Shown piece by piece: positions 2,217-33,339 of a stretch of DNA of 64,000 bases. Source of the stretch: an uncultured Chloroflexia bacterium. Lineage in GTDB: Bacteria > Chloroflexota > Limnocylindria > Limnocylindrales > CSP1-4. The DNA lies in contig CAWHXD010000008.1 of assembly GCA_963833225.1 (NCBI GenBank), positions 768,001-832,000 of the forward strand, in the 5' to 3' direction. The notes below the pieces were generated by a model. It had not been told where the DNA came from, searched no databases, and saw only the letters and a list, made by a program, of their open reading frames with translations. The position numbers and the translations under genes are program-made. Position 1 is the first letter of the stretch, and the number at the start of each line of letters is the position of its first letter.

Positions 2217-2402
2217 CTAGATCGGGCTCTCCTCGACGAGCAGGATGAACGCCGCCCCGCTGAGCCAGCACAGGAGCACGAGCGTGCCGGACGGCTCGAC
2301 GCCGAGCGGGCCCACGGCCAGCAGCCAGAACACGAGCCCGGCCAGCGCGGCGAACAGCGCCTTCGACAGGCGCAGCAGGATCTCGAACGCCAGCTCGCGC
2401 AT
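2217..2402 (-). CDS. Small two-TM membrane protein (61 aa)
   Basis: Start overlaps the recR stop; two hydrophobic segments. Confidence 0.7.
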   Translation of the reverse strand: MRELAFEILLRLSKALFAALAGLVFWLLAVGPLGVEPSGTLVLLCWLSGAAFILLVEESPI

Positions 2403-3019
2403 CAGAGCGCCCGCCGGCCCTGGAACGAGCGGATGAGGGTGACGTCGTCTGCGTACTCGAGGTCACCACCGACGGGCAGGCCGCGGGCGATCCGGGTGAC
2501 GGACCCGACGCGTCCCTCGAGGCGCTCGCCGAGGTACATCGCGGTCGCCTCGCCCTCGAGCGTCGGGTTGGTGGCGATGATGACCTCCTCGAACCGGTTG
2601 CCCTCCCCGGCCGCCTCGTCCACCCGTGCGAGCAGCTCACGGATCTTGAGCCGCTCGGGTCCGATCCCGTCGATCGGGCTGATCGCCCCGTGGAGCACGT
2701 GGTAGCGGCCCTTGAACTCGCCGGTCCGCTCGATCGCGAGCACGTCGAGTGGCTCTTCAACGACGCACAGCCGGATCTCGTCGCGGCCCGGGTCCCGGCA
2801 GATGGGGCACTGCGGCGCATCGCTGATGTTGAAGCACGTGTCGCAGAAGACGACCTCGTCGCGGACGGCCACCAGCGCCCTGGCGAGGGCACGGGCCTCG
2901 GCGTCGGGTGCCCGGAGGAGGTGGTAGGTGAGGCGCTGGGCCGTCTTGGGGCCGATGCCGGGCAGGCGCGCAAAGGCCTCGATCAGGCGCGCGACGGGCT
3001 CGATGACGGCGCTGGACAC
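2402..3019 (-). CDS. recR: Recombination mediator RecR
   Basis: LPGIGPKTAQRL HhH motif, C4 zinc finger, TOPRIM ATNPTLEGEATA. Confidence 0.97.
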   Translation of the reverse strand: MSSAVIEPVARLIEAFARLPGIGPKTAQRLTYHLLRAPDAEARALARALVAVRDEVVFCDTCFNISDAPQCPICRDPGRDEIRLCVVEEPLDVLAIERTGEFKGRYHVLHGAISPIDGIGPERLKIRELLARVDEAAGEGNRFEEVIIATNPTLEGEATAMYLGERLEGRVGSVTRIARGLPVGGDLEYADDVTLIRSFQGRRAL

Positions 3020-3029
3020 GGACCGACCG

Positions 3030-3338
3030 TCAGCCCAGGCCGGGCAGGCGGAGGCCGGCGGTGACGGCGCCCATCTTCTGCTCGGCCAGCTGGGCAGCCG
3101 CTTTCAGCGCGTCGTTGACCGCGGCCATGACCAGGTCCTGGAGCATCTCCACATCAGCCGGATCCACGGCAGACGGGTCGATCGCGAGCCCGACAAGCTC
3201 CTGCTTCCCGGTCACCGTGGCCTTGACGACGCCGCCGCCCGCCGAGCCCTCGACCGTCATGGTCTCGAGCTCCTGCTGGACGCGCGCCATGTCCTGCTGC
3301 ATCTGCATCGCCATGCGCTGCAGGTTGCCCATGCCCAT
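3030..3338 (-). CDS. ybaB: YbaB/EbfC nucleoid-associated protein
   Basis: VEGSAGGGVV...DVEMLQDLVMAAVNDA; located between dnaX and recR. Confidence 0.95.
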   Translation of the reverse strand: MGMGNLQRMAMQMQQDMARVQQELETMTVEGSAGGGVVKATVTGKQELVGLAIDPSAVDPADVEMLQDLVMAAVNDALKAAAQLAEQKMGAVTAGLRLPGLG

Positions 3339-3429: not shown

Positions 3430-5184
3430 TCAGGTGACGTCAGGCACGTCGAGGCGATCGTCGGCGAAGATCCGGTGTGCCTCGGCGAGGATATGCGCGG
3501 CCTCCTGGTCGGCCGGCAGCGGCGGCAGCAGGTCGAGGTTGGTCGCGATGCACCGGACCCCGACGTCGTGGCCCAGGTAGCCGCCGAGGCACTCCTCGAG
3601 CAGGGGCCGGCGGCGGTCGGCGACATCCTTGAGGAACCCCTGCTCCTCCGGGAACCCGAGCGTCACGACGTTGCCCTCGACCCCGATGGGGCGGCAGGCG
3701 GTGATCAGCGGCTTCACGGCGCGGTTCCGCTCGGTGATCGTGGTCACGACCGCGGTCCAGCCACGGCGTAGCCGCTCGAGGTCGTCGTCCGGCTCGCCAC
3801 CGGGCATGAGGGTGCCGGCGGCAGGGCTTGTGCGTGGAGCGTCGAGATCCTTCGCCGGCGGTGGGACCTCGCCGCCTTGGACCGGGTCCGGGCTCGTGGC
3901 TGGCGCCTCTGCCTCGCTCGGAGCCTGGGCGCCGGCTGGGGCCACGGCCTGGGCGGCAGCTGGGGCCGCGTCCGGTCCTGCTGGGTCCGGACCTGCTGGG
4001 GCCGCAGCCGCCCGGGACCGGGCTGCCGGGCGTGGAGCGTCTTCGTGCGCGGGCGCGGGCGCGCGTTCCTGTTGCCGCGCGAGCTCGGGTTGCCGCGCGA
4101 GCTCGGGCGGCTGGACGCGGAGCGCATCCGACGGAGCCGCACCGAGAGCCACGGCGGGCTCGAGCAGGGCCAGCTCGAGCTGGAGACGCAGGCCACCCGC
4201 ACCGAGGCGCGTCGGGTCGATGGCGGCAAGGCGGCGCGCGGCGGCGACGATCCCGGCGTCGGCAGCAGCACCGCCGCCGAACCCGGCGAGCATGCGCTCA
4301 CGGAGCGAATCCACCACCTGGTCCAGGAAGACCCGCAGGTCGCGGCCCCGCTCCTCGAGTCGGTCCAGCAGCGCGATCCCTGCGGCCGCGTCTCCCATCG
4401 TCAGCGCATCGACGAAGCCGTCCACCAGCTCGCCATCCGCAAGCCCCAGCAGATCGCGAACGGCGTCCGCCTCGATCCGGCCCGCGGTCGACGAGAACAG
4501 CTGGTCCAGGATCGACTCGGCGTCACGCATCCCGCCCGCGGCGAGGCGCGCGACCACGGCGATGGCATCGGGGTCCGCCTCCCGGCCGTCGGCGCCAAGG
4601 ATCCGCTCGAGCTTGCCCGTGATCTCGGCGGTGGTCAGGCGTCGGACGTCGAACCGCTGCAACCGGGACAGGATGGCCGGCGGAAAGTCCTGGGGATGGG
4701 TCGACGCGAACATGAAGGTCACGAAGTCCGGCGGCTCCTCGAGCGACTTGAGGAGCGCGTTCCATGCGTCGCGCGTGATCTGGTGGGCCTCGTCGAGGAT
4801 GTACACCTTCCGGCGCAGGTCCGTCGGCGCGTAGTTGAGCCGCTCCCTGAGCTCGCGGACATCGTTGATGCCCCGGTTCGAGGCGGCATCGATCTCCACC
4901 AGGTCCATGGCGCGGCCCTCGCGGATCGCGACACAGGACGCGCAGACGTCGCAGGGGTCGGCGTTGGGCTGCAGGTTCTCGCAGTTGAGCGCCTTCGCCA
5001 GGATGCGGGCGAGCGAGGTCTTGCCCGTGCCCCTCGGACCCGTGAACAGGATCGCGTGGGCGACCTTGCCCGTCGCCACCGCGTTGCGGAGCGTGGCGAC
5101 CACCGCCTCCTGCCCGACGATCTCGGAGAACGTCTGGGCTCGCCAGCGGCGGTAGAGGGCCTGGTGGGTCGTCCCTGCGGTCAA
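3430..5184 (-). CDS. dnaX: DNA polymerase III subunit gamma/tau
   Basis: ALYRRWR, GPRGTGKT, EIDAASN, ILDEAH; TTG start after AGGAG. Confidence 0.95.
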   Translation of the reverse strand: MTAGTTHQALYRRWRAQTFSEIVGQEAVVATLRNAVATGKVAHAILFTGPRGTGKTSLARILAKALNCENLQPNADPCDVCASCVAIREGRAMDLVEIDAASNRGINDVRELRERLNYAPTDLRRKVYILDEAHQITRDAWNALLKSLEEPPDFVTFMFASTHPQDFPPAILSRLQRFDVRRLTTAEITGKLERILGADGREADPDAIAVVARLAAGGMRDAESILDQLFSSTAGRIEADAVRDLLGLADGELVDGFVDALTMGDAAAGIALLDRLEERGRDLRVFLDQVVDSLRERMLAGFGGGAAADAGIVAAARRLAAIDPTRLGAGGLRLQLELALLEPAVALGAAPSDALRVQPPELARQPELARQQERAPAPAHEDAPRPAARSRAAAAPAGPDPAGPDAAPAAAQAVAPAGAQAPSEAEAPATSPDPVQGGEVPPPAKDLDAPRTSPAAGTLMPGGEPDDDLERLRRGWTAVVTTITERNRAVKPLITACRPIGVEGNVVTLGFPEEQGFLKDVADRRRPLLEECLGGYLGHDVGVRCIATNLDLLPPLPADQEAAHILAEAHRIFADDRLDVPDVT

Positions 5185-5252
5185 CGGCGCTCCTGCGAAT
5201 CCTCCGGCCGATGGCTTGCGGGCGCTGCGCCTCGGCCGTCGGAGGGTTAATT

Positions 5253-5519
5253 GCCGTGCACCCTCCGTCGATACGGACGCCCCCGCGCCCAGCGGCGAGC
5301 GCGGCTCGGACCAGGCCGTTCCGCGGCACCCGACGAGCATCGCTGAGTGCTGCTTCCTTCCGGACCTGACACGGTTCACGAGTCGCCGCTGCGCGGGACC
5401 CGATCCTCAACGTCGCGAACGCCGTCGGCTCTCGAAGAACGCCGACCTCGGGAGGGAATTCAGCCCTGCTGGAGCGGATTGCAGGTACAGGGCACCGCTA
5501 GTTCCCCGCCTAGCACGGC
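5253..5519 (-). ncRNA. ffs: Signal recognition particle RNA, large (Alu-containing) bacterial type
   Basis: S domain GTCAGGTCCGGAAGGAAGCAGC; 5' GCCGTGCTAGGCGGGGAACTAGCGGTGCCCTGTACC pairs with 3' GCACGGC; upstream of dnaX. Confidence 0.95.
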
Positions 5520-5525
5520 GCGGCG

Positions 5526-5534
5526 ATCATAGCA
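5526..5534 (-). promoter_or_regulatory. Extended -10 promoter of the SRP RNA
   Basis: TGCTATGAT 6 nt before the RNA 5' end; similar TGCTATNNT precedes the tRNAs ending at 5721, 5866 and 33339. Confidence 0.7.
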
Positions 5535-5633
5535 GGGGCGGTCGGCGCGGCCGGCCGGCGCGACAGGACGGCGGGAGAGCCACCCGACCCGGGGCCAAGG
5601 CCGGCACGGCCGCCAGTCCGGTCAGGCAAGAGC

Positions 5634-5721
5634 TGGCGGAGAGGGCGGGATTTGAACCCGCGATGGGTTGCCCCATACCGCATTTCCAGTGCGGCGCCCT
5701 AGGCCACTAGGCGACCTCTCC
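5634..5721 (-). tRNA. tRNA-Ser(GGA)
   Basis: Anticodon arm CCGCA-CTGGAAA-TGCGG, long variable arm, encoded CCA. Confidence 0.97.
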
Positions 5722-5737
5722 ACTCCAGAGCATAGCA

Positions 5738-5765
5738 AGACCCGACGGGGTCGCCCGTCGGGTCT
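5738..5765. terminator. Hairpin between the two tRNA-Ser genes
   Basis: AGACCCGACGGG-GTCG-CCCGTCGGGTCT, perfect 12-bp stem. Confidence 0.6.
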
Positions 5766-5778
5766 GATTGGCGGCAGG

Positions 5779-5866
5779 TGGCGGAGAGGGTGGGATTCGA
5801 ACCCACGCTAGCTCTCGCTAGACCGCTTTTCGAGAGCGGCACCATCAACCACTCGGACACCTCTCC
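5779..5866 (-). tRNA. tRNA-Ser(CGA)
   Basis: Anticodon arm CCGCT-CTCGAAA-AGCGG, long variable arm, encoded CCA. Confidence 0.97.
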
Positions 5867-5972
5867 GCCGCGAAGGATAGCAAGGGGGGCGGCGACGGGC
5901 CATGGGGCCGCGATGGGCGAGCGCGGGGCTCGAGCAGGCCGGCGAGCCGTCCGGCTTGGCGAGCGTGCCGCC

Positions 5973-6425
5973 TCAGGCGCCCGAGACGGCGCCCTCGAGC
6001 TCGCCGGTGAGCTCCTCGGCCTCGACGCGGCGGATCCCGGAGACGACCTCCAGGCGTCTGCCGAGGCGCGGATCGTCGGCCAGCTGGATCACCGACCCGG
6101 CCGCCCCGCACACCGGGTTGGGCGTCGCGTAGACGAGGGCCGCGGCATCGCACTCGAGCATCGCCGCCACGCACATCGGGCAGGGCTCGATGGTCGTGAA
6201 GATGGTCACGTCGGTGAGGCTCCGGGTGCCGAGCCTGCGGGCGGCCTCCCGCAGGGCCGCCATCACCGCGTGGGCGGTGGGGTCCGGACCCGTGCCGACC
6301 CGGTTCGAGCCCCGGGCGACCATCGCGTCGTTCATGACCGCGATCGCCCCAACGGGCGGCGCTCCCCTCGCGGCGGCCTCCCGGGCCTCCGCGAGCGCCT
6401 CGCCCATGAACAGCTCGTAGTTCAT
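5973..6425 (-). CDS. tadA: TadA-family deaminase with HAE->HAV substitution (probably catalytically inactive)
   Basis: PVGA, DPTAHAV, EPCPMC, GAAGS; syntenic with SRP-dnaX-ybaB-recR. Confidence 0.8.
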   Translation of the reverse strand: MNYELFMGEALAEAREAAARGAPPVGAIAVMNDAMVARGSNRVGTGPDPTAHAVMAALREAARRLGTRSLTDVTIFTTIEPCPMCVAAMLECDAAALVYATPNPVCGAAGSVIQLADDPRLGRRLEVVSGIRRVEAEELTGELEGAVSGA

Positions 6426-6586
6426 GTCGACGATCATAGCGACCGGCCCTCGCGTTAGGATTGGGGGGGACCCGCGTCGCGTCTCCGGCGCCCAAGGGTT
6501 CCCGGCCTTCAGAAGCGCGCAGGCGTGTGCGCCGCCGACCTTCAGCACCGCATCCCGGCCCGCGGCCGGGACCCATCGGAGCGCTC

Positions 6587-7779
6587 ATGGCAGGACCTCG
6601 ACGGATCGGCATCCTCACCGGCGGCGGCGACGTCCCGGGTCTCAACTCGGTCATCAAGAGCGTCGTCTACCGCGCCACGGATCTCGGGTACGAGGTGGTC
6701 GGGATCCGGCGCGGCTGGGAGGGCCTCACCCACCAGCGACGGACGGCGGACCTGGACCCCGAATACGCCCGGATCCTGGACCGGACCAACACCCGGACGA
6801 TCGATCGGACCGGCGGCACGATCCTCCACTCCTCACGCACCAACCCGCGCAAGATGCGGACCACCGCGCTGCCCTACTGGCTGGACCCCGCGACGATCGC
6901 CGACAAGGAGACGTCCGAGGGCGTCTACGACCTCACGGACCACGTCCTCGACACGATCGAGCACCTCGGGCTGACCCACCTGGTCACGATCGGCGGCGAC
7001 GACACGCTCTCGTTCAGCTCGGCGCTGTACGAGCGGGGCCTGCCGCTGGTGGCCATCCCCAAGACGATGGACAACGACGTCAACGGGACCGAGTACTGCA
7101 TCGGCTTCTCGAGCGCGATCACCCGGGCCAAGGAGGTGCTCAACCGCCAGCGGACGACGCTCGGTTCGCACGAGCGGATCGGCGTGTTCCGCATCTTCGG
7201 CCGGGACGCGGGGTTCACGGCGATGTACACCGCGTACGTCACGTCCACGCGCTGCGTGATCCCGGAGTTCCCCTACGACATCAAGGCCCTCGCGGACATC
7301 GTCAGCGAGGACCATCGGAACAACCCGTCCCGATACGCCATCGTGATCACGGCGGAAGGCGCGATCTGGGAAGGCGGGTCGATGGCCGACGTCGGCGACG
7401 CGGACGCGTTTGGGCACCGCCACAAGATCAACGTGGGCGAGGTCCTCGCATCCGAGCTCAAGACTCTGACCGGGATCGAGGCCGTCGCGTCCGATCTCAC
7501 CTACGACCTCCGATCGGGCGAGCCGGACATGCTCGACTCGATGGTCGCCACGACCTTCGCCAACGTCGCCATGGACCTCATCCGGGACGGCATCGGCGGG
7601 CGGATGGTCGCCATCCGCGACGGCAAGTACGCCCACGTCTCCCTCGCGGAGACGGGCAAGCCGCCGCGCCGGGTCCAGCTCGCGGCCTACGACACCGAGC
7701 GCGATTCCGACCCAGGTACTCGGACCGCTTCGGCGACCCGCTGCTCCTGACCCCGTCGCTGGGACCGGTCGAGGGCTGA
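6587..7779 (+). CDS. pfkA: 6-phosphofructokinase, PPi-type signature; C-terminal frameshift near 7700
   Basis: ILTGGGDVPGLN, GGTIL, GGDDT, PKTMDND. Confidence 0.88.
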
Positions 7780-33163: not shown

Positions 33164-33239
33164 TGGCGCGCCCGGCGGGACTCGAACCCACGACCTCTAG
33201 GTCCGCAACCTAGCGCTCTATCCGCTGAGCTACGGGCGC
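33164..33239 (-). tRNA. tRNA-Arg(GCG)
   Basis: GCGCCCGTAGCTCAGCGGATAGAGC; anticodon arm CTAGG-TTGCGGA-CCTAG; encoded CCA. Confidence 0.95.
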
Positions 33240-33249
33240 GCGATGTGTC

Positions 33250-33339
<90 letters not shown>

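Follow-up and report, generated by a model that had tools for sequence, protein, structure and literature searches.

A 64,000-nucleotide stretch of DNA (positions 768,001 to 832,000 of contig CAWHXD010000008.1, assembly GCA_963833225.1; referred to below as the window) from a member of Candidatus Limnocylindria, a lineage of soil Chloroflexota, carries a gene derived from tadA, the gene of the bacterial deaminase that forms inosine at position 34 (I34) of tRNA-Arg(ACG). In the encoded protein a valine, Val54, occupies the position of the glutamate of the HxE motif. The gene is probably a vertical descendant of tadA which has turned into a pseudoenzyme and is selected for a job other than deamination, the natural substrate tRNA having disappeared from the genome. 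The valine is conserved throughout the lineage, the lineage lacks tRNA-Arg(ACG), and at the family level the residue at the catalytic position varies together with the anticodon of tRNA-Arg.

The relatives are referred to by family: f1 is the family of the window, f2 belongs to the same order and has streamlined genomes of about 1.1 Mb, f4 belongs to another order, and f3 and f5 are families of the class whose protein has the canonical HAE motif. Several of the genome counts given below take in unpublished genomes (G102, G122, G126, G131, G139, G145, G156, G184, G189, G235, G331, G356 and G443). The host assembly, from a free-living organism, consists of 20 contigs (3.9 Mb, 71% GC) and is 86% complete.

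Ancestry of the protein and conservation of the valine

The catalytic motif of the window protein reads TAHAVM. As the sequence-only reading had noted, the zinc ligands His52, Cys82 and Cys85 are kept and the glutamate is replaced, Val54 being encoded by GTG. The protein scored 78.7 bits with PF00383 (cytidine/deoxycytidylate deaminase zinc-binding) and 75.1 bits with PF14437 (MafB19-like deaminase, the model used to find TadA homologues), the alignment to the latter stopping at about profile position 115 of 142. The best curated family was TadA (NCBIfam NF008113) with 97.6 bits, which is under the cut-off of 150; with the same model an HAE TadA of genome G089 scored 184 bits and one HAV protein of f4 119.5 bits. 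The closest solved structures were also those of TadA (7cph, 1.2e-24; also 1z3a and 2b3j), the C-terminal domain of ADAT3 (7nz7_B) matching far more weakly (7.5e-11). A GuaD-type guanine deaminase was considered and ruled out: the HxE glutamate is missing, and the match to 1wkq (2.8e-19) covers residues 1-110 only and is weaker than those to TadA. GuaD-like paralogs, reading ...AHAE...CEPCPMCLAAAYWA, do occur in the relatives and are distinct from the window protein. All orthologs start at MNYEL, some of them using GTG at the same start codon. Judged by its locus and its descent, the gene is orthologous to tadA.

The possibility that an ordinary TadA appears here in disguise, because a GAG codon was read as GTG by a sequencing or assembly error, can be practically dismissed. 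H-A-V was found in all 18 full-length orthologs of the same genus and in 120 of the 121 nearest protein clusters at 90% identity, the remaining cluster having no motif match, and at least 575 stretches in a species-level genome collection encode a relative matching HAV-containing patterns. The 80 related loci collected were all from Chloroflexota, mostly from Candidatus Limnocylindria or Limnocylindrales. From 190 loci 149 coding sequences were obtained after dropping the frames that ran off the locus, and 132 of these were unique: 121 of the Val clade and 11 of the Glu type. The catalytic position was Val in 118 of them, Ile in two, Leu in one and Glu in 11, the glutamate occurring only in sister families or in a second copy in G089. 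The valine itself is written with different codons (GTC 63, GTG 50, GTT 4 and GTA 1). In addition, a DNA contig from an unrelated public run, which covers positions 5992-6414 of the window, differs from it at 15 positions, none of them within 6264-6266.

The changes are not restricted to the catalytic position. GAPPVGA in place of the usual EVPVGA, NPVCGAAG without its lysine and the missing FFxxxR helix, all pointed out before, were borne out by alignment to HAE TadAs, and the C-terminus is short and acidic. When the 121 Val-clade sequences were compared with the 11 Glu-type sequences of the class, N41, K105, F143, F144 and R148 proved to be lost in the Val clade. Position 41, the site of Asn42 of TadA, is Asp in 81, Asn in 24 and His in 6 of the 121 sequences and Asn in 11 of 11 HAE sequences; the window protein keeps the asparagine. 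Position 105 is V, R or I as against K or R in the HAE set, and positions 143-148 are variable or gapped where the HAE sequences have F, F and R. Twelve positions (N2, Y3, L5, M35, T74, F76, V86, G110, Q114, A116, V128 and S129) have become invariant or nearly so in the Val clade. The median isoelectric point is 5.18 for the HAV proteins and 6.16 and 6.45 for the HAE sets. The lysine of the D/NPKxGA motif and the FFxxxR helix are what we take to be anticodon-loop contacts of TadA. Asn42 of S. aureus TadA is described as binding N3 of the adenine, and an anticodon-loop role is ascribed to the C-terminal helix (PMC8216470).

By analogy with the work on TadA, ADAT2 and ADAT3 the window protein would be catalytically dead. 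It is unlikely, but deserves to be weighed, that it is still an enzyme, its intact zinc pocket working with some other general base or on a different substrate, be it a free base, a nucleotide or another RNA. The residues around the pocket (H52, A53, E80, P81, C82 and C85) are invariant and the surrounding sequence is highly conserved, as would fit a retained catalytic or ligand pocket, and the frequent Asp at position 41 could be put forward as well; the catalytic residues of pseudoenzymes are reported to be able to migrate (PMC10211241). However, position 41 is not fixed in the clade and is Asn in the window protein itself, and no other acidic residue has become newly invariant near the motif. 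Moreover, the glutamate of HxE is described as the proton shuttle, and the E73A mutant of ADAT2 as nearly inactive, in the work on the mouse ADAT2/3 structure (PMC8216470). The protein would most likely act as a zinc-bound, dimeric, non-catalytic binding module. To our knowledge, the glutamate is universal in the active deaminases of this fold.

The missing substrate tRNA

In the whole assembly ARAGORN detected genes for tRNA-Arg whose anticodons are GCG, CCG, TCG, CCT and TCT. The tRNA-Arg of the window is of the GCG type, as had been read from the letters. Neither a tRNA-Arg(ACG) nor any other A34 tRNA was found in this 86% complete assembly, which could still be short of an ACG tRNA or of a partner gene. 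Arginine codons are used in the proportions CGC 0.42, CGG 0.37, CGA 0.08 and CGT 0.07, as estimated from a crude set of 1480 open reading frames.

In the relatives the same picture was obtained. All 30 loci examined from the genus and from f2 carry the tRNA-Arg(GCG). With a pattern built on the D-arm and the anticodon loop only the GCG type was seen in f1 and f2, and the ACG type, beside a UCG tRNA, in f3 and f5; in the case of f4, GCG was found in 37 of 41 genomes (three of the 37, G122, G184 and G189, are unpublished) and ACG in none. Covariation is therefore complete at the family level: f1 and f4 combine HxV with GCG, f3 and f5 combine HAE with ACG, and f2 has GCG and lacks the gene. The sequence-only reading spoke of a tRNA-Arg that had switched from ACG to GCG. 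The absence of ACG from the lineage stands, the direction of the change being drawn from the sister families and not shown. A simple point mutation of the ACG tRNA of a sister family would probably not account for the change: the GCG tRNA is just about 76% identical to the ACG tRNA of f3, and in its anticodon arm it resembles the GCG tRNAs found in other families of Chloroflexota. A driving role of GC content was not supported either, since the HAE/ACG and the HxV/GCG loci are similar in this respect (G+C 0.62-0.72).

The GCG pattern is not peculiar to the class. It was present in 164 of 301 sampled Chloroflexota, including many families outside Limnocylindria, so life without I34 is common in the phylum. 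In this sample 24 genomes matched canonical TadA over its full length (at least 108 bits, the profile being matched to position 140-142), and all of them lacked the GCG pattern; two of the 24, G356 and G443, are unpublished. A clean ACG tRNA was present in four of the five canonical-TadA genomes tested. Among the regions read, 20 in all, the eleven best PF14437 matches from GCG-bearing families outside Limnocylindria were dCMP-, guanine- or cytosine-deaminase-like or a divergent HAE type (f25), and there was no canonical TadA among those eleven. In the phylum sample the GCG pattern and a canonical TadA match were both missing from two families, f11 and f15. Limnocylindria stand out by still holding a tadA derivative.

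The use of GCG for ACG is an already known kind of event in other bacterial groups. It is described for some Mollicutes, where tadA is reported lost (PMC3711424), for Thermotogae and Spirochaetes (PMC8007984), and, together with "some deeply branching bacteria", for the Candidate Phyla Radiation (PMC8629427). In this respect Limnocylindria, with tRNA-Arg(GCG), UCG and CCG in place of ACG and I34, resemble these groups. Unlike the Mollicutes as portrayed in PMC3711424, they have kept a tadA derivative, which is under selection in two orders. On the side of novelty, a literature search returned no description of an inactive bacterial TadA or of the tRNA-Arg of Limnocylindria; supplementary Figure S1 in Yokobori 2013 and supplementary table S1 in Diwan and Agashe 2018 may be relevant to this point. 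The work of Rafels-Ybern et al. 2019, which is cited for the deeply branching bacteria, may list Chloroflexi already among the lineages without I34. The new part is the long-lived bacterial pseudo-TadA with the substitution of ADAT3.

Selection, partners and the surroundings of the gene

A class draw of 150 genomes (f1 44, f4 50, f2 6, f3 49 and f5 1) was used for the distribution of the gene. A homolog was found in 39 of 44 genomes of f1 (56-86% identity) and in 48 of 50 genomes of f4 (49-58% identity), where ten loci were read and nine had Val and one Leu. In f3, 42 of 49 genomes gave a homolog at 38-48% identity, and all eight loci read had HAE together with DPKxGA and FFxxRR; the single genome of f5 had one at 48% identity, the locus reading HAE on a short contig without the C-terminus. 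A quick maximum-likelihood tree was built from 101 rows, the row of the window itself being left out and its genus mates included. In it the Limnocylindria Val clade was monophyletic with a support of 99 (SH-aLRT being the only support calculated) and had a stem of 0.95 changes per site. Since new conserved positions accompany this long stem, a change of job fits better than relaxation.

A second, independent DPTAHAV group was noticed in 6 of 120 listed proteins (P0163 and five of its nearest clusters, P0272, P0274, P0279, P0283 and P0300), situated among HAE TadAs of the Rhodothermus/Bacteroidota type. The change looks more recent there, because most of the other TadA motifs are kept.

The 121 unique Val-clade coding sequences are stop-free frames at 50-86% identity across two orders; two f4 matches carry one in-frame TGA each. 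Pairwise NG86 ratios of nonsynonymous to synonymous change (dN/dS) for 7260 pairs of the Val clade had medians of 0.08 (dS<0.3, n=8), 0.31, 0.28, 0.22 and 0.14 by rising dS and a maximum of 0.89, and the 55 pairs of Glu-type sequences had a median of 0.35, all these values being rough, since saturation or bias of dS is likely at 71% GC. On the basis of these comparisons the Val-type gene is under purifying selection in the lineage. Thus the earlier proposal that the lineage has dropped inosine decoding and kept an intact pseudo-deaminase agrees with both sides of the evidence: there is no tRNA-Arg(ACG), and the orthologs conserve HAV with ratios well below 1.

Several observations weigh against the pseudoenzyme reading. 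The protein was unmatched in 5 of the 44 genomes of f1, which are 90-97% complete, and f2 had no homolog, neither in the class draw (0/6) nor in a larger set of 16 genomes that are 84-93% complete (0/16). The syntenic site of f2, between the tRNA-Ser pair and tRNA-Arg(GCG), held no remnant of the gene in two spanning loci (tblastn E >0.3). The role is therefore dispensable, as the streamlined sister family has deleted the gene. Contigs of two public RNA runs cover the tRNA genes and the neighbouring phosphofructokinase gene and give no usable cover of the coding sequence, the public runs holding at most 0.22 of the sampled words. The incompleteness of the assembly, the roughness of the dN/dS values, the invariant pocket described above and the two copies in G089 described below belong to the same side. 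The losses in f1 and f2, together with the long stem of the Val clade, could be taken to mean that the gene is functionless and in slow decay after the loss of its substrate. This is nevertheless very improbable: the frames are open in two orders with dN/dS well below 1, the valine codon turns over synonymously, new invariant residues have arisen, and the start codon and a promoter box are conserved.

The box in question is a hexamer of the form TANNNT (TATGAT, TATCAT, TAGCAT or TATAGT) whose end lies 5-9 nucleotides ahead of the start codon; it was seen in 111 of the 121 unique upstream sequences of orthologs. A hand calculation that sets A and T each at about 0.15 gives some 2% as the chance expectation. 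Some f4 loci have instead a conserved CTAGACT farther upstream. A sigma-70 promoter and terminator scan of positions 5300-7000 gave 0 sites, so the argument for a promoter is a comparative one. The claim that the gene has its own promoter is thus kept as far as the conserved -10-like box goes, and received nothing from the consensus scan. The spacing of the box suggests a leaderless transcript.

The sequence-only reading also allowed for one half of a bacterial heterodimer like ADAT2/ADAT3, in which the window protein would be the scaffold for an active deaminase paralog. The substitution is the same Glu-to-Val as in ADAT3, whose structure the protein does match, and in one f4 genome, G089, an HAV copy occurs together with the HAE TadA mentioned above. 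Against this, no second deaminase-fold gene, HAE-type TadA included, was found in the 86% complete assembly with PF00383, NF008113 or tblastn, seven deaminase-fold queries of which four matched the window locus and three nothing. In most genomes of f1 and f4 there is just one match. The additional copies that were read in relatives occur sporadically, are guanine- or cytosine-deaminase-like and reach 60-72 bits with the TadA model. The N-terminal domain of ADAT3 is absent from the window protein. The HAE copy of G089 is carried by another contig, of 7.6 kb, next to a second tRNA-Ser(CGA), and could be due to contamination. A heterodimer of this kind is accordingly quite improbable, and the suggestion was not upheld.

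Two further observations concern these searches. In G089 (loci L180 and L181) the Val-type copy is at the usual locus and the HAE copy elsewhere, representing either contamination or a natural pair of a dead and a live protein; no tRNA-Arg of the GCG or the ACG type was recovered from this genome. In the host assembly no dCMP deaminase or RibD-type domain was detected (one PF00383 match; none with the dCMP-, guanine- and cytosine-deaminase-like tblastn queries), which may reflect the absent 14% of the assembly.

When two copies of the window protein were submitted to complex prediction, a score of 0.73 was obtained, the best control giving 0.00, with a partner pLDDT of 88 and runs agreeing in at least 95% of the contacts. 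Among proteins of solved structure, this mark was attained by 20 of the 30 that are pairs and by 1 of the 23 that are single chains. As TadA dimers are already solved, the pass may reflect mere likeness. M84, G87-A88, L90, L115 and the invariant DPT motif are part of the interface in the prediction. The protein is probably still a homodimer.

The locus corresponds to the usual one of tadA, as had been stated: the tadA-like gene, two tRNA-Ser genes, the signal recognition particle (SRP) RNA, dnaX, ybaB and recR follow each other on the same strand (Table 1), and the phosphofructokinase gene (pfk) is divergent on the other flank. The longest dnaX open reading frame overlaps the SRP RNA gene, so the true dnaX start is probably downstream of the latter; such an overlong frame is a typical over-extension in high-GC sequence. 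The pair of tRNA-Ser(GCT) and tRNA-Arg(GCG) is often 1.3-10 kb from the tadA-like/tRNA-Ser locus in f1, f4 and f2 (L173, L174, L177, L216 and L219), and in the window it is 27 kb from the tadA-like gene. This nearness is probably plain synteny.

Table 1. Positions in the window of the tadA-derived gene, its key codons, and the genes and signals around it
Feature	Position	Strand	Remarks
TadA-derived gene, HAV for HAE	5973..6425	(-)	150 aa; stop codon 5973-5975
Val54 codon GTG (catalytic Glu position)	6264..6266	(-)	plus-strand cac
His52 codon, zinc ligand	6270..6272	(-)	invariant in 121/121 HAV and 11/11 HAE sequences
Cys82-Pro-Met-Cys85, PCxxC zinc ligands (EPCPMC)	6171..6182	(-)	both Cys invariant, 121/121
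-10-like TATGAT, possible leaderless promoter	6433..6438	(-)	7 nt before ATG
tRNA-Ser(CGA), directly downstream	5779..5866	(-)	same arrangement in 10/10 f4 loci and beside the f5 HAE TadA
tRNA-Ser(GGA)	5634..5721	(-)	
Large-type SRP RNA	5254..5518	(-)	Rfam RF01854, 175.4 bits
dnaX open reading frame	3430..5379	(-)	Pfam DNA_pol3_delta2, DnaX_C and others
ybaB/ebfC	3030..3332	(-)	PF02575, 114.6 bits
recR	2402..3019	(-)	RecR HhH, ZnF, Toprim and C-terminal domains
tRNA-Arg(GCG), G34 tRNA in place of the usual bacterial ACG	33164..33239	(-)	
tRNA-Ser(GCT), paired with tRNA-Arg	33250..33339	(-)	same pair in f4 loci

Relation to known deaminases and a possible course of events

The window protein shares with bacterial TadA the fold family, the size, the zinc ligands, the DPTAH and EPCxMC motifs, the locus and the best sequence match, and a homodimer is predicted for it. 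It differs from TadA in having Val for Glu, in lacking the Lys of DPKxGA and the FFxxxR helix, in its score (97.6 against 150) and in the absence of a tRNA-Arg(ACG) substrate, and in its clade Asn42 is not conserved. ADAT3 is described as having Val for Glu, a retained zinc, a negative surface and a C-terminal helix too short for the anticodon loop (PMC8216470). The window protein is like ADAT3/Tad3 in the same substitution, the kept zinc site, the shortened or lost C-terminal helix and the more acidic character, and unlike it in consisting of the 150-aa deaminase domain only, with no N-terminal tRNA-presenting domain, and in that no active partner was found. This likeness is convergent and not ancestral, because the protein is bacterial and closer to TadA. 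It also resembles the inactive deaminase domains treated by Iyer et al. 2011 (PMC3239186), which have lost catalytic residues and kept the fold. For the ADAR-like and the plant and protist ones regulatory RNA-binding roles are suggested there. In its passages on TadA the same article presents the enzyme as pan-bacterial, names only the eukaryotic Tad3 as being without the glutamate and makes no mention of an inactive bacterial TadA.

On the preferred reading, tadA descended vertically at its ancestral locus and would have become a pseudoenzyme in which the zinc site and the fold are kept. Deamination of the TadA type would be blocked, as the proton-shuttling glutamate is valine, and the contacts to the anticodon loop have been lost with the Lys of DPKxGA, the FFxxxR helix and, in most members of the clade, Asn42. 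The substrate is gone too, the CGN codons being decoded by tRNA-Arg with GCG, UCG and CCG. Archaea decode CGN with the same set of GCG, UCG and CCG tRNA-Arg. Selection would keep the protein for a binding or scaffolding role, on RNA or on protein, which is useful and dispensable, and the new conserved surface, formed by the N-terminal NYEL, QLA and VVSGIR, may serve this role. The loss of the anticodon-loop contacts sets a limit to the RNA-binding role that the sequence-only reading had proposed as a possibility.

A wider interpretation can be offered tentatively, and we regard it as rather less probable than not being true: a branch of free-living bacteria at the level of the class would have made its own "ADAT3" convergently and kept it in at least two orders for a new non-catalytic job, as a step in an ordered dismantling of wobble-base modification, by a route that would recur in the second HAV clade. 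In the order proposed, I34 would have been given up first, with TadA dead and ACG replaced by GCG, then lysidine in the order of the window, and at last the dead TadA itself would have been lost in the streamlined family f2.

As to lysidine, the assembly has two tRNA-Ile(UAU) genes (C2:1988-2064 and C19:81154-81230; loci L226, L227, L229 and L239) and gave no match to TilS. In a 60-genome class draw TilS was found in 0 of 17 genomes of f1, 0 of 3 of f2, 19 of 19 of f3, 20 of 20 of f4 and 1 of 1 of f5; a homolog of the tRNA-Ile(UAU) was found in 9 of 17 genomes of f1, 1 of 3 of f2 and 0 of the 40 others, and all 13 loci read had UAU. Lysidine, like inosine, seems to have been abandoned in the order of the window, which may decode AUA without it.

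Homology-based annotation names these proteins "tRNA(adenine34) deaminase", and TadA is commonly regarded as nearly universal among bacteria. It is therefore probable that the annotation is wrong in hundreds of Limnocylindria genomes, with I34 decoding wrongly assumed. The lineage would provide a bacterial parallel, made by nature, to the way in which ADAT3 originated: a subunit of a TadA homodimer can lose its glutamate, take a valine and persist. This has a bearing on the origin of the eukaryotic heterodimer. The contrast within one class, of HAE with ACG against HxV with GCG, followed by the loss of the gene, would be of use in studying the causes of the loss of wobble inosine and in asking what a dead deaminase is kept for. 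The TilS and tRNA-Ile(UAU) pattern suggests that a free-living lineage, and not just reduced parasites, has withdrawn more broadly from modifying its anticodons.

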